Of a DNA stretch of 64,000 nucleotides, positions 2,445-57,748 are shown one piece after another. The notes under the pieces were generated by a model. That model did not search any database and had not been told where the DNA came from. It saw nothing but the letters and a program-made list of their open reading frames with translations. Positions within the stretch are counted from its first letter, which is position 1. Every line of letters starts with the position of its first letter. This DNA is from an uncultured archaeon. GTDB lineage: Archaea > Aenigmatarchaeota > Aenigmatarchaeia > CG10238-14 > SCSR01. Location: assembly GCA_964475145.1 (NCBI GenBank), contig CAYYVK010000001.1:6328-70327 (forward strand), given 5' to 3'. The translations under genes and the position numbers were made by a program.

Positions 2445-2456
2445 TTTTAAATATTT
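2445..2456 (+). promoter_or_regulatory. candidate TATA box (TTTTAAATATTT) about 20 nt upstream of TFB-like ATG; would imply leaderless or short-leader transcript
   Basis: A/T-rich TATA-like octamer at expected archaeal spacing in a 320-bp intergenic region. Confidence 0.25.
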
Positions 2457-2472
2457 ACCGATTTAATTTTAA

Positions 2473-4533: not shown

Positions 4534-4563
4534 AATATTAATTTACTTAAAAACTAATAACAA

Positions 4564-6843: not shown

Positions 6844-6845
6844 AA

Positions 6846-7181
6846 ATGGCAGAAGTGTGTCTTAAGTGTGGAGCTCCTGCTTCTCAAGGTATTTGCTCTA
6901 AGTGTGGATTGCCAGCAGAAATTTGTGTTTGTGAAGCTTTAGAAAAAGAAGAGAAGAAAATAAAAGTTTTTATCGAAAAGAGAAAGTTTAATAAGCCTAT
7001 AACAATAATTGAAGGAGTGAGAAGTAGAGGAAAAGAAATTACTTCTCAATTGAAGCAGAAGCTTGCATGCGGTGGAACCTACAAAAACGGGAAAATAGAG
7101 TTGCAAGGTGATCATAGAAATAGGTTAAAAGACTTGCTTAAAAGTTTTGGATTTGATGAAAGTCAAATAGAAATAATATAA
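6846..7181 (+). CDS. sui1: translation initiation factor aSUI1 (eIF1 homologue)
   Basis: N-terminal CxxC...CxxC...CVC zinc motif and SUI1 core (GGTYKNGKIELQGDHRNRLKDLL); archaeal L29-SUI1-Rpp29-S17 order. Confidence 0.8.
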   Translation: MAEVCLKCGAPASQGICSKCGLPAEICVCEALEKEEKKIKVFIEKRKFNKPITIIEGVRSRGKEITSQLKQKLACGGTYKNGKIELQGDHRNRLKDLLKSFGFDESQIEII

Positions 7182-7200
7182 AGTCTTTTTCTTTATAATT

Positions 7201-7479
7201 ATGCCCATTACACCAAAGAACTTAGTCAGACATGAACTGATAGGGTTAAAAGTAAAAGTTGTTAAATCTACTGAAAAAACTCAAAAAGGTTTAACAGGAG
7301 TAGTGATAGACGAAACTTATAACACGCTTAAGATTGAAACAAAAAATGGTGAAAAGACTGTGATAAAAAGCAATTGCGTTTTCATCTTTACCCTGCCAGA
7401 CAAAACAAAAGTACAAGTAGATGGTAAGGTTTTAGTAGGTAGACCAGAAAACAGGATAAAAAAGAAATTCTTATACTAG
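7201..7479 (+). CDS. rnp1: RNase P protein component 1 (Rpp29/Pop4)
   Basis: 92 aa; [14 protein letters not shown]...[18 protein letters not shown] Sm-like Rpp29 fold; conserved position before S17. Confidence 0.7.
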
Positions 7480-7529
7480 CCTTGTTTAAGAATTTATATT
7501 TTTCCAATTTCAAGTTTATTAAAAGTGGT

Positions 7530-7859
7530 CGGATGAAAGCTAGAAACATTGGAATAAAAGTTAAACCACCAGAGAAGGAATGCTCTGACCCTAAGTGTCC
7601 GTTTCATGGTCGTTTATCCATTAGAGGGAAGATCCTAGAAGGTTTGGTTGTCTCTGCCAAATCGCCAAAAAGTGTTATAATTGAACGAAATTATCTTCAT
7701 TATGTCCCAAAGTACAAGAGGTACGAGCGTAGACACAGTAGAATTGCTGCCTACAATCCTGAATGTATAAACGCAAAGGAGGGTGATAAAGTTAGAATTG
7801 CTGAATGCAGACCTTTGAGCAAGACTAAATCTTTTGTTGTCATAGAGGTGATTAAGTGA
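7530..7859 (+). CDS. rps17: 30S ribosomal protein S17 (uS17); start chosen at internal Met MKARNIG
   Basis: [16 protein letters not shown] zinc-knuckle-like S17 N-terminus; ORF-track ORF begins 48 nt earlier. Confidence 0.8.
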
Positions 7860-8152
7860 GCATGAATTTAAAGCCTGATCCAACGTACATAAAAATCATT
7901 TCAAGATTGGCAAAGGAAAATATGCTAACAAGAAAAGAAATAGCAAGAATTGTAGAACCAAATTTCCCTTACATCCCTCCACCAGAAAAGTTGATCTATG
8001 TATTAAGCGAGGTAGACAGATACATAGATAGTTTAGAAAAGAATGGAATGATAATAAAGTTTAGGTACAAAGGGAGTAGAAAAGATTACACGGTCCAAAT
8101 CACAGAAAGAGGATTAAGTTATGCTGAAAAGTTAAGAAAAGGTGAAAAATGA
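7856..8152 (+). CDS. hypothetical winged-helix-like protein inserted in r-protein operon
   Basis: 98 aa, ATGA-coupled to S17 and L14; no ribosomal-protein signature. Confidence 0.4.
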
Positions 8153-8547
8153 AAGCAGTTAAAGCGAAAGTCACTAAAGCATTGAACGTTGGAAGTTATC
8201 TCGTTTGTGCTGATAACACAGGGGCAAAACTCTTACAGATAATTTCTGTAGGCGGGTATAAAGGTACAAGAAGAAGGCAACCAAGAGCTGGAGTAGCTGA
8301 TGTTGTTAAATGCACGGTAAAAGAAGGTGATGTAAAGATTAGAAAGCAAGTGGTAACTGCAGTAATAATCAGGCAGAAGGCAGAATATAGAAGGAAAGAA
8401 GGAATTAGAATAAAGTTTGAGGATAATGCAGCAGTCTTAGTAAACGAAAGTCTAGAACCAAGAGGTACACAGATAAAAGGTCCTGTCGCAAGAGAAGTTG
8501 TAGAAAGGTTTCCTGCAATAGGAAAGATTGCTAGCATGGTTGTTTAG
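8149..8547 (+). CDS. rpl14: 50S ribosomal protein L14 (uL14)
   Basis: 132 aa; [14 protein letters not shown]... characteristic L14 N-terminus. Confidence 0.9.
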
Positions 8548-8549
8548 GT

Positions 8550-8936
8550 GTGCTTATGCCTAAATCAAAAAAACCTAGAAAGCAAAGAAAAGCCTTGTAT
8601 ACAGCACCATTACACAAGAGAAGAAAGCTTCTTTCTGCGCATTTATCCAAGGAACTTAGAGAAAAGTATAAACGAAGATCCTTACCAATAAGAAGAGGAG
8701 ATGAAGTAAAGATACTGCGTGGAGAATTTAAAGGAAAAGTTGGTAAGGTCTCTAAGGTTGATTTGAAGAAATTAAAAGTATACGTAGAAGGTGTGACTAG
8801 AAAAAGGACTGTAGGAACTGAAGTACAAGTACCCATTCATCCAAGCAATCTAATGATAATAAACCTTGAGTTAAGCGATAAAAGAAGGCTTCTCATCCTG
8901 GAGAGGAGTTCTAAGAAAGCAAGCCAACGTTTATAA
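8550..8936 (+). CDS. rpl24: 50S ribosomal protein L24 (uL24, KOW domain)
   Basis: KOW motif [19 protein letters not shown]; follows L14. Confidence 0.85.
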
Positions 8937-9011
8937 GCTTTTCTCACGATAATTTTAAAAATTCAAGGATAAGTTAAAAGAAGTTAAAATAGATTAAAAA
9001 GGTGGGAGTAT

Positions 9012-9710
9012 ATAGCAAAGTTAAAAAGGCTTTTAGCACCAAAATACTGGAAAATTCCAAGAAAGAAGTTAGAGTGGGTTGTATCGCCTAGGCCAGGGCC
9101 TCATAAGAAGTTAGAGTGCATCCCCTTGCTAATAGTGGTAAGAGATTTTCTACATCTAGCAGAAACTGGAAAAGAAGCTAAAAGTATAATAAAAAAAGGT
9201 GAAATTCTTGTAGACGGAAAGCCAAGAAAAGACCATGCTTATCCTGTTGGATTGTTTGATGTAGTCTTTATACCTAAACTTAACGAATGTTATAGAGTAG
9301 TTCCAACTTCATACGGCTTAGACTTGTTGAAAATAAATAAGGAGGAGTCTAACTTAAAAATCTGCAAAATCCTAAATAAAACTACTCTCAAAGGTGGAAA
9401 AACACAACTAAACTTGAACGATGGGAAAAACATTATTGTAACTGAAGATGTGTACAAGACTAACGATTCTCTTTTGATCGAGCTACCGAGCTTAAAAATA
9501 GTTCAGCATATTCCACTTGAAAAAGGTTGCACAGGAATTGTTGTAAAAGGGAAGAACTCTGGAAAAGTTTGTGTTGTTGATAAAGTTTACAAAGGTGAAT
9601 TTAGAAAACCTGCTAGAGTATTATGTAAAATTGGAGAAGAAAAAATTGAAACACTTCTGGACTACTTGATTGTCTTGGGGAAGGAAAAACCTCTCATTAC
9701 AGTGATGTAA
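9012..9710 (+). CDS. rps4e: 30S ribosomal protein S4e (eS4); N-terminus extends upstream of first ATG, probable ATA (or other non-ATG) start at 9012 preceded by AGGTGG
   Basis: Open frame from 8988; translated AKLKRLLAPKYWKIPRKKLEWVVSPRPGPHKK matches conserved eS4 N-terminus; first in-frame ATG only at 9126. Confidence 0.75.
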   Translation: MAKLKRLLAPKYWKIPRKKLEWVVSPRPGPHKKLECIPLLIVVRDFLHLAETGKEAKSIIKKGEILVDGKPRKDHAYPVGLFDVVFIPKLNECYRVVPTSYGLDLLKINKEESNLKICKILNKTTLKGGKTQLNLNDGKNIIVTEDVYKTNDSLLIELPSLKIVQHIPLEKGCTGIVVKGKNSGKVCVVDKVYKGEFRKPARVLCKIGEEKIETLLDYLIVLGKEKPLITVM

Positions 9711-10220
9711 ATGGAAGAAAATCCTATGCGTGAAATCAGGATAGAGAAAGTTACTTTAAACATAGGATGCGGCGGAGATTTGCAGAAGATAGAAAGAGCG
9801 AAAAAGCTCTTAGAAATGTTAAGCGGACAAAAGCCTACGGTAACAAAAAGTAAGAGAAGGTCTACTTTTGGAATAGCTAAGGGTAAGCCTGTAGGCGTTA
9901 AAGTTACTCTTAGGAAAAAGCATGCTGAAGAATTCTTTAAAAGAGTTCTACTGGCTGTAGATAAAAAAATTAAAAGGTCTCAATTCGATAGTGACGGAAA
10001 CTTGAACATAGGAATAAAAGAGTACATAGACTTACCAAACGTAAAGTATCAACCTACGATAGGAATACTGGGCTTGGATGTTGCTGTAACTTTTGAGAGG
10101 CCAGGTTACAGGGTGAAAAGAAGGAAAGTAAAAAAAGGAAAAATACCAAAAGAGCATAGAATTAATAAAGAGGATGTGATAAAATTTTTGGAAGAAAAAT
10201 TCGGTGTTAGAATTGAATGA
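9711..10220 (+). CDS. rpl5: 50S ribosomal protein L5 (uL5)
   Basis: 169 aa; KVTLNIGCGGD...; conserved position. Confidence 0.9.
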   Translation: MEENPMREIRIEKVTLNIGCGGDLQKIERAKKLLEMLSGQKPTVTKSKRRSTFGIAKGKPVGVKVTLRKKHAEEFFKRVLLAVDKKIKRSQFDSDGNLNIGIKEYIDLPNVKYQPTIGILGLDVAVTFERPGYRVKRRKVKKGKIPKEHRINKEDVIKFLEEKFGVRIE

Positions 10221-19356: not shown

Positions 19357-19656
19357 TTGGTGGTCAAGATTCAGCTGTTGTTGACGATACTTGCACTAAT
19401 AGATATAGCTGCTGGTTCTGCTTTAGTTTTCCGTCTATCCATCTTTTCATCCTACATCGGCTATGCAATCCTTGTAAAAGGTGGGTGGACTGTTTTAAGC
19501 ACGTTCAAAAGTGACTTTCTATTTTTGCTGATAGGTGTTCTAGACTGCATTGCTGCACTGATTTTACTTTTACCTAGTGCTTTAACTTCTCTTTCCTGGC
19601 TTGTAGGAATTTTAATTATGGTAAAAGGAGCTTGGTCTTTTCTATCTTCTCTCTAA
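19357..19656 (+). CDS. small membrane protein
   Basis: 99 aa, three hydrophobic helices; between cobO and RNR. Confidence 0.3.
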   Translation: MVVKIQLLLTILALIDIAAGSALVFRLSIFSSYIGYAILVKGGWTVLSTFKSDFLFLLIGVLDCIAALILLLPSALTSLSWLVGILIMVKGAWSFLSSL

Positions 19657-22600
19657 CTTAGTTCGCATACTTCACAAACGGATATACCCTCTCCTATTGG
19701 CTTCAGAACTTCCTGTTGTCTACTGCCTTGTCTGTAAACAGTAACACCTAAACATCCAAGGTCGTATGCAAGCATAAAAGCCTTTTCCACGTCATGAGGC
19801 GTAGCATCGTGTGGAAAGTTTATCGTTTTGCTTATACCATTGTCTACGAACTCTTGGAAGGCTGCTTGAATTCTTACATGCCATTCTGGTGAAATGTCAT
19901 GAGCTGTAACGAAGATTCTTCTTATTCTCTCCGGTATTTCTTTTATGTGCTGAATGCTTGTAGAACTTAAAACTTCTTTCAAAATTTTCTCGTCGTAAAA
20001 TCCTTCTTCTATGGCAATTCTCTCAAAGTAAGGATTAACAACAATCAAGTTTGTTCCTAAACTCTCAGCCACATTTCTTATATAACCTATAGCAAAAAGT
20101 GGTTCTATGCCTTGAGAACAACCTGCTATCTCACTTATGCTTCCAGTAGGTGCTATAGTAGTTACTGTAGCATTTCTCATTGCTTCATAACCAAGCTCAT
20201 CCCATCTGCTACCTTTAAAGTTTGGAAAGCTACCTTTTTCCTTACCAAGCTCTACAGAAGTTTTCCTTGCTTCTTCTGTTATAAATTTCATCAATTCTCT
20301 TGCAGTCTTGAGAGCTTCTTCAGAATTGTAAGGAATTCTCAACAAAATTAACATGTCAGCAAATCCCATTACACCCAAACCTATTTTCCTGTTTCCCTTT
20401 GTCATTTCCTCTATCTGCTTAATCGGATACTTATTGGCATCAATAACATTGTCTAAGAAACGAACTGCTAGTTTTACTGTTTTTCTAAGCTTTTCCCAAT
20501 CTATCTCGTACTTTCCTTCTACTTCTTTAACCATCTTAGAAAGGTTTATAGAGCCTAGATTGCAAGACTCGTAAGGCAAAAGAGGTTGTTCTGAGCAAGG
20601 GTTAGTAGACTCTATTTCACCCAACTTTGGTGTTGTGTTGCAATGCCTGTTTATCCTATCTATAAAAACTACACCAGGTTCACCATTCTTCCAAGCCATT
20701 GTAACTATTAAGTTCCAGATAGCTCTTGCTTTCAAGGTTTTAACTACTGCTTTGTTTCTAGGATTGATTAGCTCAAAGTCCTTGTCATTTTTTACAGCAT
20801 CCATGAATTTGTCCGTTATTGCCACAGAAATGTTAAAGTTTCTCAAAAATCCTTCTTGCTCTTTGCAAACTATAAAGTCTAATATATCTGGATGGTCCAC
20901 TCGCAAAATTCCCATGTTGGCTCCACGACGTTTTCCCCCTTGTTTTATCTCTTCTGTTGCTGCATTGAAAACTTTCATGAAGCTTATAGGTCCTGAAGCT
21001 GTGCCAGTAGTCGATTTTACTATATCACCTTTTGGCCTTAGACGAGAAAAGCTGAATCCGGTGTTGTGAACAAACACTAGGCCGTTGACACCAGCAAGAT
21101 AATTCTGAAAATTCTCTACTGTTAAATCATAAAAGATTTTATCTTCTTTCGTTCTTGAAACCGATTTTACAACCTCTAAAGATTCTACAAGTCTCAACAA
21201 CTTTTCAAGTTGGCGTAGGTTTAAAACATTACCAACTTTTCTTAAAAACTTTACTAAAGTAGCCTTAGCAACAACACCTCTCTTATGCCACTGTCCGAGT
21301 GAAATTTTTTCACCATCAACAACAGCAATTGTCTGATTACCGTTGGTCTTGAATTCAACATCAGACCCAGATAGTAACTTTTTAAATGATTCGAAATTTA
21401 ACGGTAGTCCAAAACTTCCACCCTTATGATTTTCTAACAAAGTTTTAAGTTTCTCCCTTTTGTCGTTTCGCTGTAAGTTCATGCCTATGAGTTCATAAAA
21501 CCTTAATAGCGAAGAATATTCCTCGACTTGCAAAACATAATCAACACCATCTTTTCTTTTTTTCTTTCTCATTCTTGCCTTTATTCCTATAGAGTTTAGA
21601 AAGTATGTAATCGCTTCTATCTGTTCTTCATTAATCATGGAGAGCTCAACACTAGGTTTGGAGCTAACATGCCCTTCTGCATCAAAAAGTCCTGTAATGA
21701 AAGAAAGTGTAGCATTTTTATTTTTATATACAGTTTCTCTTAGTTTAAGGTAGTACGAGATTATTTCTTTGTTCTTTATATCAATGTAGAAAATGTTCCT
21801 ATCTTTTTGGATCGAGTATCTTCTTCTAAACTTCTTCTCCAAATGTTTATTTATTTTTTCAAGCGTTTCTTTACAGTTGTCATAAATCCTCAATCTATCT
21901 GTTTCATAGCCAGCTGCTCTATTTCTATACCTTCCGATACTACCATCACCTACTATGAAGCCAGTCGTCCAATAATCGAAGTCAAAACTGGTCTTAACTT
22001 TTGGCGGAATAGCCCCTAAAATCATATCTCCTTTTTTAATCTCATCAGCTCTTTTTTGTACAACTTCAAAATTCGGTGTCATTACAAGAAAGGGATGCCA
22101 AGCAGAAGTCAAAATCTTAGTACCTTTGTTAGTTTTTATTTCGTGTTTTTCTTCGCCATTGCTTAAAACATACTTCCAAATAAATTGGACTTTACCCCTT
22201 GCTAACTCTTTTGTTTTTGGATCAAAAGAGAAAACGAATATTTGCTTGTCTCTCACGTCAATTCCGTGTCTATTAAACTCTCCATCATAAAATTCTTTGT
22301 GCCTATTTTTCTCGTAGAACCTACTCATACTTAAAACATGAAACTCTCCATCATTTTCAAATACAAGTTTAGCTCTTCCGTCTACACATCCTCCACCTGA
22401 TTTTTGAACGATTGCCATAACTTTAAGAGCATCAAAAATACTTTCTATGCTATCTTCAACAGGTATAACAAAACATGCAGATAAGTTAAGACCATCAGGA
22501 ACTCCTGCGTTCATAAGCGTTGGTGAATTTGGCAGAAACTCTAGATTTGTCATCATCCTGTAAAACTCCTCTTCTAGGCTTTTAATGTATTCCTCGTCTT

Positions 22601-23072
22601 TTCCGTACATCCTTTCGACTTCTGCTATAGCTTTGGCAACTCTCCTGAACATTTGCCCGGTAGACTCTATTATCTTGCCGTTAACGTCTTTTCTCAGATA
22701 CCTAGCTGCCAGAATTAATAAAGCATTTGTTGGTAGCTTCAACTCGTCCTCTACACCCAACATTGCTTTTATCCTTCTTGCCTCTGCCCTTTTTTGTCTG
22801 TACAAAATATATGCTTTAGCAGTCTTGTAATGTCCATTTTCTACAAGAACTTTTTCTACAAGATCCTGAACTTGTTCAACAGTAGGAATATCTCCAGGCT
22901 TCAGTTGTTTTTCCAGCAACTCTACAACTTGTTTAGAAAGCTTTTCTGCTATTGTCCTATCCTTTCCACCTACAGCCTGGGCAGCCTTAAAAATTGCGTT
23001 AGTAATTTTTTCAGGCTCGAAGTCGACGATTCTTCCGTCTCTTTTTTTGATTTTAGAAATTGTCATCAACAT
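19653..23072 (-). CDS. nrdJ: ribonucleoside-diphosphate reductase, class II (adenosylcobalamin-dependent), intein-containing precursor (1139 aa; ~697-aa mature extein)
   Basis: N-terminal ATP-cone; thiyl-radical loop TNPCSEQ; KSGGG/TGFSFSRLRP motif split by intein; C-terminal Cys pair CEVCE. Confidence 0.9.
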   Translation of the reverse strand: MLMTISKIKKRDGRIVDFEPEKITNAIFKAAQAVGGKDRTIAEKLSKQVVELLEKQLKPGDIPTVEQVQDLVEKVLVENGHYKTAKAYILYRQKRAEARRIKAMLGVEDELKLPTNALLILAARYLRKDVNGKIIESTGQMFRRVAKAIAEVERMYGKDEEYIKSLEEEFYRMMTNLEFLPNSPTLMNAGVPDGLNLSACFVIPVEDSIESIFDALKVMAIVQKSGGGCVDGRAKLVFENDGEFHVLSMSRFYEKNRHKEFYDGEFNRHGIDVRDKQIFVFSFDPKTKELARGKVQFIWKYVLSNGEEKHEIKTNKGTKILTSAWHPFLVMTPNFEVVQKRADEIKKGDMILGAIPPKVKTSFDFDYWTTGFIVGDGSIGRYRNRAAGYETDRLRIYDNCKETLEKINKHLEKKFRRRYSIQKDRNIFYIDIKNKEIISYYLKLRETVYKNKNATLSFITGLFDAEGHVSSKPSVELSMINEEQIEAITYFLNSIGIKARMRKKKRKDGVDYVLQVEEYSSLLRFYELIGMNLQRNDKREKLKTLLENHKGGSFGLPLNFESFKKLLSGSDVEFKTNGNQTIAVVDGEKISLGQWHKRGVVAKATLVKFLRKVGNVLNLRQLEKLLRLVESLEVVKSVSRTKEDKIFYDLTVENFQNYLAGVNGLVFVHNTGFSFSRLRPKGDIVKSTTGTASGPISFMKVFNAATEEIKQGGKRRGANMGILRVDHPDILDFIVCKEQEGFLRNFNISVAITDKFMDAVKNDKDFELINPRNKAVVKTLKARAIWNLIVTMAWKNGEPGVVFIDRINRHCNTTPKLGEIESTNPCSEQPLLPYESCNLGSINLSKMVKEVEGKYEIDWEKLRKTVKLAVRFLDNVIDANKYPIKQIEEMTKGNRKIGLGVMGFADMLILLRIPYNSEEALKTARELMKFITEEARKTSVELGKEKGSFPNFKGSRWDELGYEAMRNATVTTIAPTGSISEIAGCSQGIEPLFAIGYIRNVAESLGTNLIVVNPYFERIAIEEGFYDEKILKEVLSSTSIQHIKEIPERIRRIFVTAHDISPEWHVRIQAAFQEFVDNGISKTINFPHDATPHDVEKAFMLAYDLGCLGVTVYRQGSRQQEVLKPIGEGISVCEVCELS
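21063..22388 (-). mobile_element. intein (442 aa) with LAGLIDADG homing-endonuclease domain inside nrdJ
   Basis: Starts with Cys directly after KSGGG, ends VHN before Thr of TGFSFS; block B TSAWHPF, LAGLIDADG blocks GFIVGDGSIG and GLFDAEGHV. Confidence 0.85.
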
Positions 23073-31383: not shown

Positions 31384-33030
31384 TTAGTATTCTTCCTCGC
31401 CACTAGGAGTAGGTGTTGATGGCTTTTCCTTGGAAAGCTTTCCAGCAGCTATAACATCATCTATTCTCAGAATCATTTCAGCAGCTTCTGCAGCTGAAAT
31501 TATTGCTTGCCTCTTCACTTTTAGAGGTTCTACCACGCCATACTCAAACGCATCTTCTATTCTTCCCTCAAAGATGTTTATGCCATAAGTGCTTTTGCCT
31601 TGCTCGTGAGCTGCTCTAAGTTGTACAAGAATGTCTATTGGGTCTAGACCTGCATTCTCGGCTAAAGTCCTTGGAACTATTTCTAAAGCATCTGCAAAAG
31701 CTTTTATAGCCAATTGTTCTCTCCCTGAAAACTTTTCTGCAAACTCTTTTAATTGCTTAGAAACTTCAGCCTCAGGAGCCCCTGCACCTGGAAGTATCTT
31801 ACCAACTTCTACTGCTGATGCTACAGCACCTATTGCATCTTCTATACTTCTATCAACTTCATCAACAACATGCTCCGTGCTTCCCCTTACTAGAATAGTC
31901 ACTGCCTTAGGATCTTTGCAACCTGTTACAAAAGTTACTTCTTCTCCACCTATTTTCTTCTCTTCTACCAGCTTGGCATAACCTAAGTCTTCTTTTGTCA
32001 AATCTTCTAAGTTTGAAACTATTCTTCCACCTGTTGCTCTTGCTAAAGCCTCCATGTCAGACTGTTTCACTCTTCTGCAAGCAAGAATGCCTTTTTTAGC
32101 TAGGTAGTGCTGAGCAACGTCGTCTATACCTTTCTGACAGAATACCACGTTAGCGCCTGTTGCAGCAACCTTTTCCACCATTTCTTTTAGCATCTTCTGT
32201 TCTTGCTCTAAAAATGCTTGCATCTGTTCTGGAGATGTAATTCTTATTTGTGCGTCTGTCTCAGGCTCTTTTACTTCAAGCGCAACATCCAATAAAGCTA
32301 TCTTTGCATCTTTTATTGTTTTAGGCATTCCTGGATGCACTACCTCCTTATCTATAGCAATTCCCCTTATTAGCTCTGTTTCTTCAGAAGAAGCACCATG
32401 TTTCTTCAATCTTTTTATGTTGTCTGTATCTACGACAATTTTTCCATCTTTTTTCTCTGCTACACTTCTTACTGCTTCAACAACCAGAGAAGCTAACTTT
32501 GGAGATGCCTTTTCCACAGACTTTCCAGACATGGCAGTAATCGCTATCTTTTTCAAGTCTTCTGTATCTTCTAGTGTAACCGGCCTTGCAATTTTCTCTA
32601 GAATCTTTAAAGCCTCTTCTTTAGCAATCTTAAAACCTTTTGTTATGACAGTTGGATGAACTTCTTGATCTAAAAGTTGCTCAGCATTTTTCAAAAGCTC
32701 GCCTGCTAAAATAACGGAAGTAGTGGTACCGTCGCCTGTCTCCTCGTTCTGTGTCTTTGCTACTTCAACCATCATCTTAGCAGCTGGGTGCTCTATCTCC
32801 ATTTCTTCTAGAATAGTCACACCATCGTTGGTAATAACTATATCACCTATACTGTCTACAAGCATTTTGTCCATTCCCTTAGGTCCTAGAGTAGTTTTCA
32901 CAGCCTCAGCAACTGCCTTAGCAGCTGCTATGTTATTGCGTTGAGCATCCTTACCTGTAGTTCTTAACGTACCTTCTGGCAATATCAAAACCGGCTGTCC
33001 TCCTAATTGACCTATCATTGCCTGAGCCAT
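31384..33030 (-). CDS. ths: thermosome subunit (group II chaperonin)
   Basis: 548 aa; [25 protein letters not shown] motifs; acidic GEEEY tail. Confidence 0.9.
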
Positions 33031-33368: not shown

Positions 33369-34271
33369 TTAGAGACATGAAGATTCTACAACCTTTCTCA
33401 AATCTTTTCTACTAGTTTCTTTCAATTCTTCTTTCGATATGATTGGCAAATTGTCTAAATACTTTTTTCTATACTGTTGGATTACAAACAAAACCTTCGA
33501 GAGGGTCACCGCTGACATTTCTCTGAAATGTTGCAAACTTCTTAGAACTTTTTCCTCGTCTTCGTAAAGCGCTGTAATAAATACTTTTTCCTCTCTTCCA
33601 ATAATATTAAAAATTGATCCACGCACCGGAGAATTCTCTATTTTCATACGCTTAAACTCTTTGACAACTTCACTTTCGAAATCATCTTTTGGTTTGAGAT
33701 ACACCGGTTCTGATTGATCAAACCTAAAGTTAACTCGAAGTTTTGTGTTCAGCAATTCTTCCATCTTTTCTACATGCTCGAGTTTCGGGTTCACACGTTT
33801 GTGCTCTATTTCATACAATGCCTTTTTGGATATACCTATCCTTTTCGCCATATCCTCTAGCGTATACTTGTTCTCTAACCTCTTCCTCCTAAGCAACTCT
33901 GCGTCTATTTCTACTACATGCTTACCTTTGCTAGCCATAACTGCTGATGAGGTATTATCAATAATAGATTCTAGCGTTTGAGGCGTGACCACTGCCACAG
34001 AGAAACGGTTGTACACTGTATTGTCCTGGAGCTTAAATTTTGTACATCTATAAGCTACGATAAATGGGCAAGCTGAAAGAAAGTATGCCAAGTTCTTTAG
34101 GCTAAAAGCACTTTCCTGTGAAATGCAGTCCACGTTAAATAAAACCTTTAACAGGAGTAGATAATCTCTTCTAGCAGCAATGTCAAAACATCCACTAGTC
34201 ACGAACACATCAAATTCTTTTCTCTTTAGCATCTCGGCTACTTGCTTTAGCAGTAGAAACTTATTAAACAT
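33369..34271 (-). CDS. XRE-family HTH transcriptional regulator with N- and C-terminal domains of unknown function; start set at internal Met (MFNKF) to avoid tRNA overlap
   Basis: HTH TLEDMAKRIGISKKALYEIEHKRVNP; ORF-track start 34343 would overlap tRNA at 34314..34410. Confidence 0.5.
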   Translation of the reverse strand: MFNKFLLLKQVAEMLKRKEFDVFVTSGCFDIAARRDYLLLLKVLFNVDCISQESAFSLKNLAYFLSACPFIVAYRCTKFKLQDNTVYNRFSVAVVTPQTLESIIDNTSSAVMASKGKHVVEIDAELLRRKRLENKYTLEDMAKRIGISKKALYEIEHKRVNPKLEHVEKMEELLNTKLRVNFRFDQSEPVYLKPKDDFESEVVKEFKRMKIENSPVRGSIFNIIGREEKVFITALYEDEEKVLRSLQHFREMSAVTLSKVLFVIQQYRKKYLDNLPIISKEELKETSRKDLRKVVESSCL

Positions 34272-34313
34272 TTCTCTCAATAAATTATTGAAAAGAAATA
34301 TATTTATGATATT

Positions 34314-34410
34314 GGGCGAGTAGCTTAGCCTGGTGGAGCACAAGTGCTTAATCGCCTTATAAGGCAGCTAAGCTAGCGAGGGGTCGAGGGTTCAAATCCC
34401 TCCTCGCCCA
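34314..34410 (+). tRNA. tRNA (97 nt) with one or more non-canonical insertions/introns; isotype unresolved
   Basis: Perfect acceptor GGGCGAG/CTCGCCC, T-arm GAGGG-TTCAAAT-CCCTC, D-arm GCTT-AGCCTGGTG-GAGC, discriminator A. Anticodon region holds perfect helix GCTTA/TAAGC enclosing 18 nt with nested hairpin GCCT-TATA-AGGC; about 23 nt exceed a 74-nt tRNA. Confidence 0.7.
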
Positions 34411-34442
34411 CTTTTATAGATATTTAAAAGGAATTTTATCTT

Positions 34443-36089
34443 ATGGAGAAAAGATACGAGTTTTGGACTGACAAGCTTGCAAGAGAAATTGTAGAGAGAA
34501 AGAAGTTTCGCTTTATTGATGAGGAAATACCAACTTTCAAAAAATTCGTCGTAAAGACTGCTGCTTCAGTTTCTGGAGTGCTCCATATAGGCAGACTTAG
34601 CGATACGATCAGAAGTGAAGCTGTATATCTCTCTTTAAAAGATGCCGGGTTCGATGCAGAGTTTATATGGGTTGCGGATAATGTTGATCCTCTAAGAAAA
34701 ATACCCAGAGGGATACCAGAAAGCTACAAAGAATTTTTAGGCGTACCTGTTACAGAAGTACCTGACCCTTTTGGTTGCCATAAATCTTACGAAGAGCACT
34801 TTAGGTCTGAGTATCTTGAAGTTGTCAACCAGTTCATTCGAAGCGATATGAAAATCTTTTCCATGAGAGAAGAATACTTAAAAGGAAATTTCAGGAATGA
34901 GATAAAGACTATTCTGGAAAATTATGAAGCTATTGTAGAAATACAGAACAAGAACAGACCAAAAGATAGACCTTTACCAAAAGATTGGAGCCCATGGCAA
35001 CCTATATGCAAGAACTGCGGTAAAATCATCACTCCTAGAGTAACAAAGATAGAAAACGGTAAAGTTTACTATGTTTGTAAAGATTATGCTTTTAAAACAA
35101 CTGTAGCAAAGGGTTGTGGATATGAAGGTGAAGATAACCCCTTGCACGGGAATGGCAAGCTCATGTACAAAAGTGAGCTTGCTTCTCAGTGGTACCACTG
35201 GCAAGTTTGTTCTGAAGGTTTCGGGAAGGAATATATAGTGCCAGGAAGTGCCTTTTGGATAAATGCTGAAATAGTAGAAAGGGTTTTTAGATTTCCTATG
35301 CCTGTACCAATTTTCTACGAGCACCTAGTAGTAGATGGTAAAAAAATGTCAGCATCTGTCGGCAACGTTGTATATCCAGCTGACTGGATGAAAGTTGCAA
35401 CACCTGAATTGCTTAGACTACTATTTTTAAAAGACCCCATGAGAGTAAGAGATTTTAGATGGAGTGATGTACCAAGGTTGATGGAAGAGTACAAAAGGTT
35501 AGAAGAAATTTACTACGGAAAAAGACCTGTAAAGAATGAAAGAGAAAAGGCAAACCTCACCAGACTTTTCGAGCTTGTGAGAGTCGAGCCTTTACCAAAA
35601 GAAAAGCCTTTCAGAATATCTTTTGACTTTGCATGCATGCTTGTACAAATTATACCAAAGGAAAAAAGGATAGAAAGAATTATAGAAATTTTAAGAAAAA
35701 CGCAGGGTATAAAAGAGCTTTCTGAAGAAGAAAAGGTATTGCTTGAAAAAACGCTACAAAAGGCAGAAAACTGGGTAAACCTTTATGCACCTGAAAATAT
35801 GAAGATAAAGGTTTTAGAATACATTCCTGAGGAAGTTAAGAATAAGCTATCAGAAGAGCAGAAGATTGCACTAAGGGAGCTTGGCGAATTTTTAAAAGAA
35901 GATAGGAAAGACGAAGAAATAAGAGAAGAGATAGTAAAAATATCGGAAAGAATAAAAATTCCATACTCTAAAATCTTTGAAGCTGCCTATACTGTACTGA
36001 TTGACAAGCCTTTCGGCCCAAGACTAGTCCCGTTTATCCAAAGCCTTGACAAAAGCTTTGTAGTAAAGAGGTTTGTTGAGTTAAGATGA
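34443..36089 (+). CDS. lysK: lysyl-tRNA synthetase, class I (archaeal type)
   Basis: 548 aa; HIGR (HIGH-like), KMSAS (KMSKS), Cys-rich zinc segment CKNCGK...C..C. Confidence 0.85.
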   Translation: MEKRYEFWTDKLAREIVERKKFRFIDEEIPTFKKFVVKTAASVSGVLHIGRLSDTIRSEAVYLSLKDAGFDAEFIWVADNVDPLRKIPRGIPESYKEFLGVPVTEVPDPFGCHKSYEEHFRSEYLEVVNQFIRSDMKIFSMREEYLKGNFRNEIKTILENYEAIVEIQNKNRPKDRPLPKDWSPWQPICKNCGKIITPRVTKIENGKVYYVCKDYAFKTTVAKGCGYEGEDNPLHGNGKLMYKSELASQWYHWQVCSEGFGKEYIVPGSAFWINAEIVERVFRFPMPVPIFYEHLVVDGKKMSASVGNVVYPADWMKVATPELLRLLFLKDPMRVRDFRWSDVPRLMEEYKRLEEIYYGKRPVKNEREKANLTRLFELVRVEPLPKEKPFRISFDFACMLVQIIPKEKRIERIIEILRKTQGIKELSEEEKVLLEKTLQKAENWVNLYAPENMKIKVLEYIPEEVKNKLSEEQKIALRELGEFLKEDRKDEEIREEIVKISERIKIPYSKIFEAAYTVLIDKPFGPRLVPFIQSLDKSFVVKRFVELR

Positions 36090-36110: not shown

Positions 36111-37151
36111 ATGGAGCTCGAATCAAAAATTTTTAAGAATGAAGAAATTTTGTTGCCAGAATACTTACCAGAAATTCTCCCCCATAGAGAGAGTCAGATA
36201 AAACTCTTAGCAGAGAACCTTTTAGCAACTTTAAAAGGGAGGAAGCAAAATACATTCATCTTTGGCCCTCCAGGGATAGGAAAAACAGCAACAGTAAAGT
36301 ACGTGTTTAGAGAGTTTGAAGATTATTCTGGTATAAAAACTGTATATACAAATTGTTGGGATCATAGAACTGCTACAGCTGTCCTTTCACACCTTGCACT
36401 TAGTTTAGGAATGTTTGTGCAAAGACATGGTTGGTCGAAAGATGAAATAATGTCAAGGCTTCTAGAAGGACTAAAAAAGTGGGGAAAAAGTGTTGTAGTT
36501 TGTCTAGACGAAGTAGATCAACTAATATTCAGGGATGCTTCCGTCTTGTACGACCTGCTTAGGATAGACCAGTACGTGAAAAATCCTATTACTCTTATTT
36601 TCATTTCGAACAATCCTCACGTCTTTGCTAAAGTGGAACCGAGGATAAAAAGTAGCTTATCTGTAGAAGAAATAGAATTCAAGCCTTACACACTCCAGGA
36701 AATGAAGGATATACTAGAAGAGAGAGCAAAAAATGCCTTTACTGCAGTCGAGAAAGGAGTTGTGCTGCTTGCGGCTAATCGTGCTGTTCAAATGGGAGGA
36801 GATGTTAGAATAGGTTTGGACTGCCTGCTAAGAGCTGGAAGGCTAGCAGAACGTGAAAATGCTGAGATGGTAAAAGTAGAACATGTAAAAAGGGTTCTTA
36901 AAGAAGTTGAACCTGTTAAACCGAAGATCCTTAGGGAAAAGATAAACGAACATGAAAAAGTGTTGCTAGAGATACTTGATAAGGAAAAAATTCTTAGTTC
37001 TGGAGACCTTTACAGGAAATATTGTGAAGTATCTTCAAACCCTGTAAGCGACAGAGCTTTTAGAGATCTAGTGAAACATTTACAAGAATTAAAGCTGATA
37101 AGAGTAAGGAAAGGAAAGTCAAGAAACCTAAGAATAATATCAAAAATATAA
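36111..37151 (+). CDS. cdc6: Orc1/Cdc6 replication initiator
   Basis: AAA+ Walker A FGPPGIGKTATVKY, Walker B VVCLDEVDQL, C-terminal winged helix. Confidence 0.85.
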   Translation: MELESKIFKNEEILLPEYLPEILPHRESQIKLLAENLLATLKGRKQNTFIFGPPGIGKTATVKYVFREFEDYSGIKTVYTNCWDHRTATAVLSHLALSLGMFVQRHGWSKDEIMSRLLEGLKKWGKSVVVCLDEVDQLIFRDASVLYDLLRIDQYVKNPITLIFISNNPHVFAKVEPRIKSSLSVEEIEFKPYTLQEMKDILEERAKNAFTAVEKGVVLLAANRAVQMGGDVRIGLDCLLRAGRLAERENAEMVKVEHVKRVLKEVEPVKPKILREKINEHEKVLLEILDKEKILSSGDLYRKYCEVSSNPVSDRAFRDLVKHLQELKLIRVRKGKSRNLRIISKI

Positions 37152-51858: not shown

Positions 51859-53400
51859 TCATCTTTCCAAAACAAACATCTTTTTTGTTATTGGTATTTC
51901 TCTTACTCGATGAATCAACATTTCCCTCTTTTCTCCAATGCCGATAGGAATTTCTTCTGCTAATAAGTTAGAAGCTCTTTCCAGCTTCCTCAGTTTTTCC
52001 GCATAGATTGTGAGAATTTTCTCTTCTTTCTTTACAGGATCTCCAAGTTTCTTGTGTAAAGTTACACCAGCTCCCTTATCTTTTGGTGCTCCTGCTGCTT
52101 TGGCAACCTCGGATATACCCCCATTATCGATCCACAACACTCTCCCATTTTTCTCTGACTTTATATCCAATTTATACGCACCTACCTCCACTTCCTCAGG
52201 ACTTATCTTTTTCCCTCCTTGGGCTTCCATTATTTCATAGAGTTTTTTCATGGCTTTACCAGAGTTTAATGCAGCTTTAGCTAGATTCTCGGAATTTCTT
52301 TTACCCACCATGCTCAGAAGTATTTGTGCTAAAGAGCATACCTTCTCTTCTAGATCGCTTACAATTCTTCTTCTTGAAATGACTTCTAAAGCCTCCCTTG
52401 CTTCAAGAGCAGGACCTATCGAATAGCCTACAGGCTGTTCCCCATAAGTAACAGCGCACTGAACTTTTATTCCAACCCTTTTCCCAAGCTCTATAAAATC
52501 TTTTGCTAACAAATCTGCATCTCCTATAGTCTTAATTTTTGCTCCTCTACCAGTAGGTATATCTATCACCAAATGTGTAGCTCCAACCGCTTTTTTCTTT
52601 GCCATTATAGATGGTAGAAGAAGAGGATCTATACCAAGAGGGTATTCTATCTGAATGAATATATCGTCTGCAGGGGCTAGCTGTAAAGTGCCTCCCCAAA
52701 CTATGCAACCGTTTGTTTTTTCTACCACTTTCTTCATTTCTTCAATGGTTAAGTTAACTGGCATCAAACATCCTGCTCTATCAGCTGTGCCTGCTGGTGA
52801 AGTAATTGCTCTAGAAGATGTCTTTGGTATTGTTAAGCCAAGACAAGCGATTATAGGAACGAGGAGTAGCGTAGTCTTATCTCCTGGCACACCACCTGCA
52901 GAATGTTTATCACAAATAATTTTCCTCTTCAGATTAAGCTTTTTTCCAGTCTCGACCATAGCAATAGATAAGCTTGTAGCCTCGTCTAAGTCTAGTCCAG
53001 TATTGTGAAGAGTGGTAACAAAAGCAGATATTTCTATATCGGTCAAGTTTCTTTCTACAATATCTTTAACAATTTGCTTTATTTCGTCATAGTTCAGTTT
53101 TCTTCCTTTTAGCTTGTTCCTGATGAAATGAAGAGATTGAGGGAATTTTGCAACTTCCACTTCTAACGTTTCTTCCCTTCTTAGCCCAAGGGCTGCTTTG
53201 ACTTCCTCGTACAAGCCTATCGTACCTTTTTCTACTATCTTTTCTGTCACGTTTACTATAGCAGTTACACAATTCTTTTTGTAACCAACCCTAACTCTGT
53301 CAAGACTATGTATACCTAAATCTCCTGCATCCTCCATGTTCAAAATTACTATCGGTTTACCACCCGACTCCAAGCCTAGGAACTTTGCCTTCAAGTTCAT
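51859..53400 (-). CDS. deoA: AMP phosphorylase (thymidine-phosphorylase family, archaeal DeoA-like)
   Basis: 513 aa; N-terminal ~90-aa extension plus glycosyl-transferase family-3 core (SAGGVPGDKTTL; TGRGAKIKT). Confidence 0.8.
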   Translation of the reverse strand: MNLKAKFLGLESGGKPIVILNMEDAGDLGIHSLDRVRVGYKKNCVTAIVNVTEKIVEKGTIGLYEEVKAALGLRREETLEVEVAKFPQSLHFIRNKLKGRKLNYDEIKQIVKDIVERNLTDIEISAFVTTLHNTGLDLDEATSLSIAMVETGKKLNLKRKIICDKHSAGGVPGDKTTLLLVPIIACLGLTIPKTSSRAITSPAGTADRAGCLMPVNLTIEEMKKVVEKTNGCIVWGGTLQLAPADDIFIQIEYPLGIDPLLLPSIMAKKKAVGATHLVIDIPTGRGAKIKTIGDADLLAKDFIELGKRVGIKVQCAVTYGEQPVGYSIGPALEAREALEVISRRRIVSDLEEKVCSLAQILLSMVGKRNSENLAKAALNSGKAMKKLYEIMEAQGGKKISPEEVEVGAYKLDIKSEKNGRVLWIDNGGISEVAKAAGAPKDKGAGVTLHKKLGDPVKKEEKILTIYAEKLRKLERASNLLAEEIPIGIGEKREMLIHRVREIPITKKMFVLER

Positions 53401-53774
53401 GCTACACTACACACTCCTTCTATACATTTGCATGACAAAGAAGGTTTTGGAGAAATTATCTGAGGGCAAATAACCTTAAATCCGCTACATGTAACGTTAC
53501 TCCTTTTGTTTATGCATTCCCAATTGGCTCCGGCTGTCTCTGGACAACAATTAGTGGAAAGCCATTCACAATCTGTATCAAAAGTGCATGAACGAATTAT
53601 CTCAGGTGTATGAACTGGTATTGTAGTTGATGGAGCTGTGGTCGTGGTTGTTGTCCCTATAGTTATTTGTGTGACGCATAAATTTTTCTGGACAGATTTT
53701 AGAAAGATCCAGAAGCCGATCAACATAGTTAAAATGGTGAAAAGGATATAAGGAGTACACCTTCTTACCTTCAT
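53397..53774 (-). CDS. small secreted/anchored Cys-rich protein with poly-Thr linker
   Basis: 125 aa; N-terminal TM/signal, TTTTTTAPSTT linker, 11 Cys in final 60 aa; 4-nt overlap with deoA start. Confidence 0.4.
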   Translation of the reverse strand: MKVRRCTPYILFTILTMLIGFWIFLKSVQKNLCVTQITIGTTTTTTAPSTTIPVHTPEIIRSCTFDTDCEWLSTNCCPETAGANWECINKRSNVTCSGFKVICPQIISPKPSLSCKCIEGVCSVA

Positions 53775-53849
53775 AAGTTAAATTTTGTTATCTGAAAATA
53801 AATGCTTAGGAAGACATTTTCTTGAGTGCCAGCCTCAAAAGATTAGAAG

Positions 53850-55091
53850 TTATCTGGAAGAAACAAAACCAAACTTGTTTAATGCTAGCTTGAGTTCTTT
53901 ATGTGTCTTGGAATACTCTTGTAGCGAGATTCCTTCTAATGCAGCATCCAATGCTTGCCTCATTGCGATAGCACCTATTCTTGTTTGAAGAGAGTGTATT
54001 CCACCGCCAGCTTGAACAATGAAATCGTTACCAAATACTTTTATCAATTGAGGTATATGGCCAGGATGCAACCCTCCAGAAGCAACAGGCATAACAGGCT
54101 TAAACTTCCATAGCCCTTCTTTTAACGCTTTACAATTTTCTAAAACTTCTTCCTTCTTCTCAAACATTTTCCCTACTCCTGTGCCTACGTGCAACTGATC
54201 TACACCAACAATTCTCGCAAGCTTTGCAATAACTTTCATGGATATACCATGCTTAGAATTTCTTGTTAGAGCTGCATGCCCTGCCCTATGTGCATGAATA
54301 ACAAGGTTAAAGTCTTGATTCCTTAAAGTCTGCAACGCAGACCAACCTATAGTAATTATGTCAACCATTATATACTCGTTCCCAACGTTCTCCACAGCCT
54401 TGGCACGTTTTAGCATTTCTTGCGTTTCTGCAGTAACGTTTATCATGTATGCTTTCTTCTCACCAGTTTCTTTTTCAGCCTTTTCTTTTGCTTTAAATGT
54501 TTTCTCTAACCTCTTCTCGAACTTATTGAAGTTTTGGCTGCTTAAGTTTTCATCATCTTTTACTATATCAATACCATTAACCCAAGCTTCGTAAGCAACT
54601 TTTACATGTTCTTCTGTTCTTAATCCAATCTTAGGTTTTATTATTGTCCCCAGCAAAGGTCTATTTGTCCTAAAAATTTTCCTTATCCCTTTTATTCCAT
54701 ACTTCGGACCTTTGAAGCTTTTCAGAAGCTTCTCTGGAATTGTTAAATCGACGAGCCTTAAACTTTTTATCTCTTTCATGCCAAAGATGTTTCCTGCCAC
54801 GCTAGAGAGGATCTGAGGAATATTTCCAGGTTCAAAAAGCTCAACAGGATAAGCAACGTTTATTCTTTTTCCCTCAATCTTAAAAACTTTTGCTGCAAGT
54901 TTTCTAACATACTTTTTCTCAGTTTTCACTTCTGTCCACGTTCCAGTCGAGCTCTCTGCAGCAATTGCACCAGCTGCTCTTTCTATACTTGAATTCCCTG
55001 CAGGCTCTAAAACGAATTCACATACCAAATCGTCCTTGCCTGGCTTGTAACCAAGGTCTACATAGTCTTCGTATCGCACACCATCACCCAA
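53850..55091 (-). CDS. rbcL: ribulose-1,5-bisphosphate carboxylase, form III
   Basis: 413 aa; GTIIKPKIGL, KDDENLSSQ, AGGGIHS-type motifs; clustered with AMPpase and R15P isomerase. Confidence 0.9.
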   Translation of the reverse strand: MGDGVRYEDYVDLGYKPGKDDLVCEFVLEPAGNSSIERAAGAIAAESSTGTWTEVKTEKKYVRKLAAKVFKIEGKRINVAYPVELFEPGNIPQILSSVAGNIFGMKEIKSLRLVDLTIPEKLLKSFKGPKYGIKGIRKIFRTNRPLLGTIIKPKIGLRTEEHVKVAYEAWVNGIDIVKDDENLSSQNFNKFEKRLEKTFKAKEKAEKETGEKKAYMINVTAETQEMLKRAKAVENVGNEYIMVDIITIGWSALQTLRNQDFNLVIHAHRAGHAALTRNSKHGISMKVIAKLARIVGVDQLHVGTGVGKMFEKKEEVLENCKALKEGLWKFKPVMPVASGGLHPGHIPQLIKVFGNDFIVQAGGGIHSLQTRIGAIAMRQALDAALEGISLQEYSKTHKELKLALNKFGFVSSR

Positions 55092-55923
55092 ACCTTTTCA
55101 TAAATTCTTTTGGCGTGAAAATTCCTTTTTCATTCACCAAGTAAGAAACAAGGTCAAACTCTACCAGATCAAAAGCCGGATTTCTCACTTTAATCTTTTT
55201 AGTGTTGATTTTAGAAAAAATTTCAGCATAAATTTCTTCTGCTGGCCTTTCTTCTATCACAAGCTTTTTCCTCTTATCTATCTTTAGAGTATTGCCAACA
55301 ACGATAAATGGTTTTTTCTCTCTTGCAGCTGCTAGCGCAAGGTTTTTTGTACCTATCTTGTTCACTACACCCTTAGGCTCAACAACTCTTATAGCATCTG
55401 TTCCAACTACTACACAATCTACATCTTTCATAAAATAGCTAACAGAATTGTCTGTAATGAGTGTGACAGGTATTCCAATCTTAGAAAGCTCTTTAGCAGT
55501 TTTCACCCCTTGCTCAAGAGGTTCTGTTATCGTAGCAAAAACACGGAATTTTTTCCCTTTTTTCCAGGCATTCTTTAAAACAGATAAAGCTTCACCAGAA
55601 TGACAGTGAGTCATTATTGTATGTCCATTACCAATAAGCTTACTTCCAATCCTTGCAACCCTTTTGGTAGAAGTTTCTAGTCTTTTGATGAGATAGTCTA
55701 TCGTTTTGACACTCTTTTTCTTTTTCAAAATCTCTAAGCAATTGTGTAAAACTACTGCAGTTGGTCTTGCACGCTCAAGTATCATTGCTGCAACCTCAAA
55801 CTTTAAACCAAATCCATACTTCTTACAGAACTTCCTCAAGAATTTTAACGAATACAAAGCAATCTCTTTAGCACCTTGAACTTTCATGCTCTGTATGCTT
55901 TCAGCAACTCTGGAAACATCCAT
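55084..55923 (-). CDS. ribose-1,5-bisphosphate isomerase (eIF-2B alpha/beta/delta-like family)
   Basis: 279 aa; GTDAIRVVEPKGVVNKIGT and CHSG motifs; 8-nt overlap with rbcL. Confidence 0.8.
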   Translation of the reverse strand: MDVSRVAESIQSMKVQGAKEIALYSLKFLRKFCKKYGFGLKFEVAAMILERARPTAVVLHNCLEILKKKKSVKTIDYLIKRLETSTKRVARIGSKLIGNGHTIMTHCHSGEALSVLKNAWKKGKKFRVFATITEPLEQGVKTAKELSKIGIPVTLITDNSVSYFMKDVDCVVVGTDAIRVVEPKGVVNKIGTKNLALAAAREKKPFIVVGNTLKIDKRKKLVIEERPAEEIYAEIFSKINTKKIKVRNPAFDLVEFDLVSYLVNEKGIFTPKEFMKRFG

Positions 55924-57646: not shown

Positions 57647-57748
57647 TGGGGTCGACGGGATTCGAACCCGCACACCGAGGTTTCCTCATCAAATCAGAGC
57701 TCCATTCAGCTGGAGCCTCGTGTCACTACCAGGTTAGACGACGACCCC
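57647..57748 (-). tRNA. tRNA-Trp (CCA) with 28-nt intron at canonical 37/38 position
   Basis: GGGGTCG-TC-GTCT-AACCTGGTAG-TGAC-A-CGAGG-CTCCAG[CTGAATGGAGCTCTGATTTGATGAGGAA]A-CCTCG-GTGT-GCGGG-TTCGAAT-CCCGT-CGACCCC-A; intron UGGAG pairs with anticodon loop. Confidence 0.8.

Follow-up and report, generated by a model that had tools for sequence, protein, structure and literature searches.

The window, the whole stretch of 64,000 nucleotides that was analyzed, comes from an Aenigmatarchaeota (DPANN) archaeon and very probably harbors a functional tRNA-Ile(UAU) gene that two protein-spliced introns interrupt. The shorter one, intron A, lies at the noncanonical position 27/28, and the longer one, intron B, at the canonical position 37/38.

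The tRNA Gene and Its Surroundings

The gene and its flanking features are as follows.

31384-33030, minus strand: thermosome
33369-34271, minus strand: helix-turn-helix/PDDEXK regulator, divergent, upstream of the tRNA
34277-34291, no strand assigned: palindrome TCAATAA-A-TTATTGA, a perfect 7-nt inverted repeat, read from the sequence
34314-34410, plus strand: tRNA-Ile(UAU) gene with two introns; 97-nt precursor body, CCA not encoded (Rfam, ARAGORN)
34411-34415, plus strand: C followed by TTTT, directly after the discriminator base, read from the sequence
34443-36089: class I lysyl-tRNA synthetase
36111-37151: Cdc6/Orc1

A sequence-only reading had recognized a 97-nt tRNA with about 23 nt of extra sequence at 34314-34410 on the plus strand (GGGCGAGTAGCTTAGCCTGGTGGAGCACAAGTGCTTAATCGCCTTATAAGGCAGCTAAGCTAGCGAGGGGTCGAGGGTTCAAATCCCTCCTCGCCCA), and both the gene and its surplus were confirmed with Rfam and ARAGORN. 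The Rfam model RF00005 matched all 97 nt over its full length (model positions 1-71) with 43.0 bits at a gathering threshold of 29. In the alignment the acceptor, D and T arms fitted the model, and 38 nt of the anticodon region were left unaligned. ARAGORN detected the gene as "tRNA-???" with the 4-base anticodon taat. From position 26 to the T stem the gene contains 45 nt compared with 22 in a standard tRNA, which amounts to a surplus of 23 nt.

The neighboring genes are archaeal. The thermosome showed 78-83% identity to many Candidatus Aenigmatarchaeota proteins, and the named matches of the lysyl-tRNA synthetase likewise point to Aenigmatarchaeota. The regulator had been placed downstream of the tRNA, with an open reading frame overlapping it. 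It is located upstream in divergent orientation, and an overlap arises only if the frame is extended to the TTG at 34343. Starting from the ATG at 34271, the regulator has 300 aa and leaves a gap of 42 nt to the tRNA; the genes called in related loci encode 286-300 aa. The palindrome lies 23-37 nt 5' of the tRNA and 6 nt 5' of the ATG of the divergent regulator. It is kept in the related loci L121, L125 and L129 with A or T as the central base, and is likely a TATA box and/or an operator common to regulator and tRNA, for which it is our candidate. The C plus TTTT run likely represents a putative archaeal oligo-T terminator.

A tRNA-Trp(CCA) was located at 57647-57748 on the minus strand, and no further tRNA-like genes were found in the 64-kb window by Rfam at a permissive E-value. 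The tRNA-Trp(CCA) contains a canonical intron of 28 nt (index 40-67 of that gene) in a motif with three of four pairs in the central helix and an outer helix of 5 bp. Toward the 5' end of this intron lies CTGA and toward the 3' end TGATGA, which resemble box D and box C; a full box C/D guide RNA, as in other archaeal tRNA-Trp introns, would by far exceed its length.

Several other gene groups were observed in the window. A ribosomal-protein cluster at 80-10220 comprises L3, L4, L2, S19, L22, S3, L14, L24 and L5, with SUI1 after S3, and is interrupted after L4 by a uracil-DNA glycosylase (1565-2152, minus strand) and TFIIB (2482-3075). The ribonucleotide reductase at 19653-23072 (minus strand) contains an intein with a LAGLIDADG/PI-PfuI-type endonuclease. 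Genes for AMP phosphorylase-like, RuBisCO large-subunit and IF-2B-family (ribose-1,5-bisphosphate isomerase-like) proteins at 51859-55923 (minus strand) form the archaeal nucleotide-salvage set.

Exons, Introns and Splice Motifs

Precursor positions are given below as window coordinates or as tRNA index, where index 1 corresponds to 34314.

34314-34341, plus strand: exon 1 (acceptor 5' strand, D arm, A26, C27), identical in L121, L125 and L152
34342-34351, plus strand: intron A, AAGTGCTTAA, 10 nt, noncanonical position 27/28 (splice-motif rule, index 29-38)
34352-34361, plus strand: exon 2, TCGCCTTATA, positions 28-37 (anticodon stem 5' strand and loop through A37)
34358-34360, plus strand: anticodon TAT (UAU), codon AUA, Ile (ARAGORN, excision enumeration)
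34362-34374, plus strand: intron B, AGGCAGCTAAGCT, 13 nt, canonical position 37/38 (splice-motif rule, index 49-61)
34375-34410, plus strand: exon 3 (A38, GCGAG stem strand, variable loop GGGTC, T arm, acceptor 3' strand, A73)
34332-34356, plus strand: bulge-helix-loop motif of intron A (motif scan, fold of the 84-mer)
34352-34379, plus strand: bulge-helix-bulge motif of intron B (motif scan, geometry of PMC4090602)

The splice geometry was taken from PMC4090602 and consists of a 4-bp central helix followed by a 3-nt bulge on each strand. For an intron at 37/38, both cuts then fall behind the second base of a bulge. As applied here, the rule asks for four base pairs in the central helix and two or more in the outer helix, with each cut placed between bases 2 and 3 of a bulge. 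Used alone, apart from any fit to a cloverleaf, it returned exactly introns A and B. Only intron B has the strict motif; intron A has the relaxed form (hBH, bulge-helix-loop) defined in PMC5829648 and PMC3239211. The suggestion that the extra sequence is intronic and comprises more than one intron was borne out by the rule and by the relatives described below, and that of a relaxed bulge-helix-bulge motif held for one of the two introns. The extra sequence had also been assigned to noncanonical positions, which is correct for intron A and incorrect for intron B.

In the motif of intron B, the central helix is formed by CTTA at 34356-34359 and TAAG at 34369-34372 (index C43-A46 and T56-G59), with all four positions paired. 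It is flanked by bulges at 34360-34362 (TA/A, index T47 A48/A49, the slash marking the cut) and 34373-34375 (CT/A, index C60 T61/A62). The outer helix has 4 bp in the precursor (34352-34355 with 34376-34379, index 39-42 with 63-66), and the inner helix consists of a single base pair, 34363 with 34368. In the canonical motif the first two anticodon bases lie within the central helix (PMC4090602). Placement of intron B at 38/39 or 39/40 would give the same spliced product as 37/38. Position 37/38 was chosen by the motif rule, and the base that varies among relatives (A, G, T or C) is then the first base of intron B.

The motif of intron A draws on the D arm. Its central 4-bp helix is formed by GAGC at 34336-34339 and GCTT at 34346-34349 (index G23-C26 and G33-T36), again with four of four positions paired, and its 4-bp outer helix by 34332-34335 and 34353-34356 (index G19-G22 and C40-C43). 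The 3-nt bulge is AA/T at 34350-34352 (index A37 A38/T39). There is no inner helix, and the 5' bulge is replaced by a 6-nt loop, within which the 5' cut falls after 34341 (index C28).

Excision of intron A restores a perfect CTCGC/GCGAG anticodon stem. The spliced product of 74 nt reads ...GAGC-A-CTCGC-CTTATAA-GCGAG-GGGTC..., with the loop CUUAUAA, U33, A37 and the anticodon UAU, and was identified by ARAGORN as tRNA-Ile(tat).

The two-intron solution was compared with chance. When one or two segments were excised from the 45-nt region in 7,052 ways, a single mature sequence had a 5-bp stem, U33 and a purine at position 37. When the region was shuffled and no motif was imposed, a solution with five pairs was obtained in 34% of cases with G-U pairs allowed and in 10% with five Watson-Crick pairs, so that a 5-bp stem by itself is not rare. 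A cloverleaf consistent with the splice motif was obtained in 1 of 20,000 shuffles. A single intron of 22-24 nt was rejected, as no placement leaves a 5-bp stem. Strict motifs with GCCT/AGGC or GCTTA/TAAGC as the central helix were rejected by hand on account of facing bulges (a 3x3 internal loop) or unpaired outer helices; the motif scan contained no intron built on either helix.

Syntenic and Metagenomic Relatives

In loci with a class I lysyl-tRNA synthetase of 92%, 82%, 77% and 61% identity to that of the window, the tRNA was found upstream of the synthetase gene, and the gene order is that of the window in the first three of these groups. No tRNA was found upstream of the synthetase in L134, L135 and L137, where the enzyme is 53-59% identical. 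Exon 2 (TCGCCTTATA) is conserved among the syntenic relatives. In the 92% and 82% groups all exons are identical to those of the window, and the differences are confined to intron A and the first base of intron B. Intron A is AAAGTGTTCAA (11 nt) or AAAGGTGTTCAA (12 nt) in these groups compared with AAGTGCTTAA (10 nt) in the window, and intron B begins with G or T instead of A. L129, from the 77% group, has AACCGTGTTTAA as intron A, an intron B that is longer and begins with C, and, as its third intron, 18 nt at 43/44; its exons differ from those of the window in the acceptor and T stems, where the changes are compensatory. In the 61% locus, L133, position 27/28 is uninterrupted (GAGCA-ATCGC-CTTATA), and an intron is present in the D-loop. 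Both L129 (1397-1519) and L133 (1357-1475) are overlooked by Rfam at the gathering threshold.

A metagenome scan with the pattern GCCTGGTRGAGCA-N(0-30)-TCGCCTTATA gave 26 true matches. One further hit, L139, was a chance match to the pattern without a tRNA. As TCGCCTTATA belonged to the search pattern, its presence in the 26 matches is not independent evidence, and an independent test of CTTATA comes from the syntenic loci only. The tRNA of L154 is identical to that of the window. L152 carries exon 1, exon 2 and the anticodon stem of the window gene without intron A, and reads GAGCA-CTCGC-CTTATA. Since GAGCA and CTCGC are already joined in this sequence, it provides the most direct confirmation of the boundaries of intron A and excludes an 8-nt excision.

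The homologue set (the window, L121-L133 and L138-L164) contained 23 distinct precursors. All 23 gave a 74-nt tRNA-Ile(UAU) by the same splice rule, with no more than one central-helix position mismatched. Agreement in 23 of 23 extended to the 3' side of the loop, namely the junction left by intron B and A38, which the search pattern did not cover. The homologues contain one to four introns at positions 9/10, 14/15, 27/28, 37/38 and 43/44. Up to three introns had been suggested for the window gene; it has two (10 and 13 nt), and higher numbers occur among its relatives, with three in L129 and four in L157. The intron at 37/38 was present in all 23 distinct homologues, and the search pattern did not demand one. 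Those at 9/10, 14/15, 27/28 and 43/44 were gained or lost between close lineages. Among relatives intron A ranges from 10 to 16 nt, and it is missing from L152 and 12 other distinct sequences. Its helix was kept in eight of eight variants: the 3' strand of the central helix is GCTT, GTTC, GTTT or GCTC, each of which pairs with GAGC. As the partner strand belongs to the exon, this helix changes on one side only, from G-C to G-U.

Covariation was evaluated on 13 distinct spliced sequences. In these, 100% of the cloverleaf cells were paired, and compensatory changes occurred at eight pairs; none of 500 shuffles equaled these values. The pair 27:43, in which the base immediately 5' of intron A pairs with the opposite strand of the anticodon stem, was A-U nine times and C-G four times. 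The filter by which spliced forms were selected permitted all four combinations at this pair.

A shared start was observed among introns at three positions. AGTG begins the 9/10 intron of L160, the D-loop introns of L133, L148 and L157, and intron A of L164 and the window. Examples are AGTGTTTAAACAC..., AGTGAC...CAC..., AGTGTTTTGCG... and, in the window, A-AGTGCTTAA; AGTGTTT is common to L160 and L164. The match is short, and the common start might be a sign of intron transposition.

Alternative Readings of the Precursor

The sequence-only reading had divided the surplus into three short introns (CAAGT, a central 11 nt and TAGCGAG), which would leave GCTTA/TAAGC as the anticodon stem and CCA, CGA or GCA as the anticodon. 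GCTTA/TAAGC is the most stable local fold, and ARAGORN accepted all three products as 74-nt cloverleaves, so that cloverleaf fit or sequence alone cannot reject them. The excision of 5 + 11 + 7 nt nevertheless proved wrong: the introns measure 10 and 13 nt, and the spliced 74-mer has the anticodon UAU and none of these three. The 5- and 7-nt segments are too short for a splice motif and are absent from the list of the motif scan. In L121 and L125 the supposed stem is broken (GTTCA against TAAGC, a C-A mismatch), and in L152, L148 and L133 it is absent. The CAAGT segment is 1-2 nt longer in close relatives, and the "intron" CAAGT and the "exon" GCTTA vary in length and sequence as one unit. In addition, the window already has the tRNA-Trp(CCA) at 57647-57748, and a tRNA-Ser would require a long variable arm. 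On the sequences compared, the three-intron division is already contradicted, and we consider it extremely improbable. A smaller departure keeps both introns and shortens intron A to 8 nt (34343-34350), with the central helix shifted by one pair and a tRNA of 76 nt. The motif scan includes this intron (index 30-37, central helix 4/4, outer helix 5 bp), and ARAGORN accepted the 76-mer as tRNA-Ile(tat). However, position 26 of the product would be followed by two surplus bases before the anticodon stem begins, 27:43 would be an A-G mismatch, only one base would separate the 5' bulge from the returning strand of the central helix, and the uninterrupted GAGCA-CTCGC of L152 fits the 10-nt excision only. 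The shorter intron is therefore very unlikely.

ARAGORN in intron mode (-i) proposed a class II tRNA-Leu(UAA) with one 11-nt intron in the anticodon loop and a long variable arm, and the 3' end GGGTTCRAATCCCTCCTCGCCCA is indeed common to many unrelated tRNA-Leu genes. A scan of the genome collection with GGGTTCRAATCCCTCCTCGCCCA gave, among the matches listed, almost exclusively bacterial genomes, and the three bacterial loci checked were tRNA-Leu or tRNA-Tyr. The archaeal matches among those listed, L013 (a Bathyarchaeia tRNA-Leu) and L081 (Heimdallarchaeota), were unrelated over the rest of the molecule and were set aside. That the Bathyarchaeia tRNA-Leu shares the 3' end and differs everywhere else speaks against a tRNA-Leu in the window, as do two non-pairs in the predicted anticodon stem and a D arm of the class I type. 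L152 and L138 lack the supposed variable arm, L133 has unrelated sequence in its place, and we give this assignment next to no probability. A decayed, nonfunctional tRNA pseudogene whose insertions are never removed would account for the low scores from standard tools and for the relatives overlooked by them (L129 and L133 with Rfam). Against such decay, the exons are invariant or change in a compensatory manner across lineages, down to a lysyl-tRNA synthetase identity of 61%, the spliced forms show 100% cloverleaf pairing, the place upstream of the synthetase is conserved, and the neighboring genes use AUA as their major Ile codon. A pseudogene is thus highly improbable, and a functional tRNA-Ile(UAU) with introns of 10 and 13 nt is the reading followed below.

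Folding and Proposed Splicing

The GCTTA/TAAGC helix and the GCCT-TATA-AGGC hairpin pointed out in the sequence-only reading are both present and thermodynamically favored. Together with the tRNA body they gave -33.8 kcal/mol, the most stable of three conformers evaluated; the two splicing-competent conformers, with -26.7 and -28.4 kcal/mol, were less stable in silico. The GCTTA/TAAGC helix exists because GCTT must complement GAGC of the D stem and TAAG must complement CTTA of the loop, by which the two intron segments come to match each other as well. After removal of intron B in silico, the minimum-energy fold of the resulting 84-mer contained exactly the motif of intron A. The motifs of introns A and B share 34353-34356 (index 40-43) and are mutually exclusive, from which we infer sequential removal of the introns, the precursor refolding after the first excision.

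For intron B, loop positions 32-35 (CUUA) would pair with UAAG of the intron, and the anticodon stem would serve as the outer helix. For intron A, GAGC of the D-stem 3' strand would pair with GCUU of the intron, D-loop GGUG and exon 2 CGCC would form the outer helix, and the 3' cut would fall in the bulge AA/U. The splicing endonuclease is predicted to cut between bulge bases 2 and 3, and a ligase would join the exons to a 74-nt tRNA with the stem CUCGC/GCGAG, the loop CUUAUAA and A37. Endonucleases of broad specificity comprise the (alpha-beta)2, epsilon2 and loop-bearing alpha4 types, and loop-bearing endonucleases have been reported in diverse DPANN lineages. Cleavage of bulge-helix-loop motifs needs such a broad-specificity enzyme (PMC5829648, PMC3239211), and one would be needed here because the 5' cut of intron A lies in a loop. 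Neither a splicing endonuclease nor an RtcB ligase or TiaS was detected in the window by a Pfam search that covered 64 of its 67 open reading frames with 110 aa or more.

An additional complementarity was observed in the precursor. Intron B plus A38 (GCTAAGCTA, 34367-34375 region) contains a perfect 9-nt complement of U8-C16 (TAGCTTAGC, 34321-34329), and this pairing lengthens the acceptor stem to a 16-bp rod in the minimum-energy fold. Only part of the match is forced by the central helix. The unrelated 37/38 intron of the L133 type instead has ATTGCTC, which is complementary to GAGCAAT (positions 22-28).

Decoding and Implications

In six nearby genes, ATA accounts for 97 of 186 Ile codons, followed by ATT with 67 and ATC with 22. 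The Ile of the HIGH motif in the adjacent lysyl-tRNA synthetase is encoded by ATA. As AUA is the commonest Ile codon nearby, a tRNA-Ile(UAU) is needed. Judged by its anticodon, the mature tRNA decodes AUA as Ile, and it would accordingly be a substrate for charging with Ile.

The contrast between the universal 37/38 intron and the variable others could reflect a functional constraint. One possibility, drawn by analogy, is that pairing of U34-A35 with the intron is needed for a modification of the UAU anticodon that prevents misreading of AUG. Eukaryotic nuclear tRNA-Ile(UAU) retains a 37/38 intron, and in yeast the pseudouridines at positions 34 and 36 of this tRNA are intron-dependent. If true, an intron-dependent modification of UAU would have its parallel in these eukaryotic pseudouridines; eukaryotes are another domain of life, and their endonuclease follows another mode of recognition. 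The wider interpretation, of which such a modification is one possible part, holds that the canonical 37/38 intron is kept for function as noncanonical ones come and go, and that the 10-nt intron A is the shortest archaeal tRNA intron on record, with a D-arm motif that forces an ordered two-step splicing. We regard this combination as unlikely.

With respect to annotation, the gene supplies the AUA decoder for about half of the neighboring Ile codons, and its anticodon is left unnamed by ARAGORN and its alignment by Rfam is limited to the arms, with a low score. The three-intron and D-loop-intron relatives escape standard tools altogether. Incomplete-looking tRNA sets of DPANN archaea have already been put down to hard-to-detect genes (PMC5829648), and the locus is a worked example for recovering such tRNA genes. 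With respect to intron evolution, it offers one orthologous tRNA with one to four introns at five positions across close lineages. Neither point alters current understanding.

Comparison with Known Systems

Close parallels to the window gene exist in the ARMAN lineages, which have a tRNA-Ile(UAU) with a canonical intron and lack TiaS (PMC3239211). ARMAN-2 (Candidatus Micrarchaeum; Fujishima et al. 2011, PMC3239211) resembles the window in being a DPANN archaeon with a UAU anticodon and a strict bulge-helix-bulge intron at 37/38. The ARMAN endonuclease cleaves both strict and bulge-helix-loop motifs, and splicing of a 13-nt noncanonical bulge-helix-loop intron of ARMAN-2 was shown in vitro (PMC3239211). 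However, the ARMAN-2 tRNA-Ile(UAU) gene has one intron of 25 nt, whereas the window gene combines a 13-nt canonical intron and a 10-nt intron at 27/28 in one tRNA, and the host lineage in the window is Aenigmatarchaeota instead of Candidatus Micrarchaeum.

Archaeal tRNAs with multiple introns and relaxed motifs are well known (PMC4090602). The multi-intron tRNAs of Thermoproteales, like the window gene, combine canonical and noncanonical introns whose relaxed motifs are formed partly from exon bases. In the example of Sugahara et al. 2007, as relayed in PMC4090602, tRNA-Pro(UGG) of Pyrobaculum islandicum has introns at 25/26, 37/38 and 56/57. Where introns are neighbors in multi-intron archaeal tRNAs, one is excised before the motif of the next forms (PMC8450103). 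Thermoproteales are members of another phylum, and the examples listed by the review PMC4090602 do not include position 27/28.

Few archaea have tRNA-Ile(UAU); among 167 archaeal genomes, it was found only in Korarchaeum cryptofilum and Nanoarchaeum equitans (PMC6000648), and the gene of K. cryptofilum has an intron (PMC8450103). As in the window, a genomically encoded UAU replaces the agmatidine-modified CAU for AUA in these two organisms; the window gene differs from theirs in belonging to a whole clade of uncultivated relatives with one to four introns. Both tRNA-Ile(UAU) and multi-intron tRNAs are thus already known in archaea. The only formal extension is the 10-nt intron A, which falls short by 1 nt of the 11-129 nt published for archaeal tRNA introns (PMC4090602).
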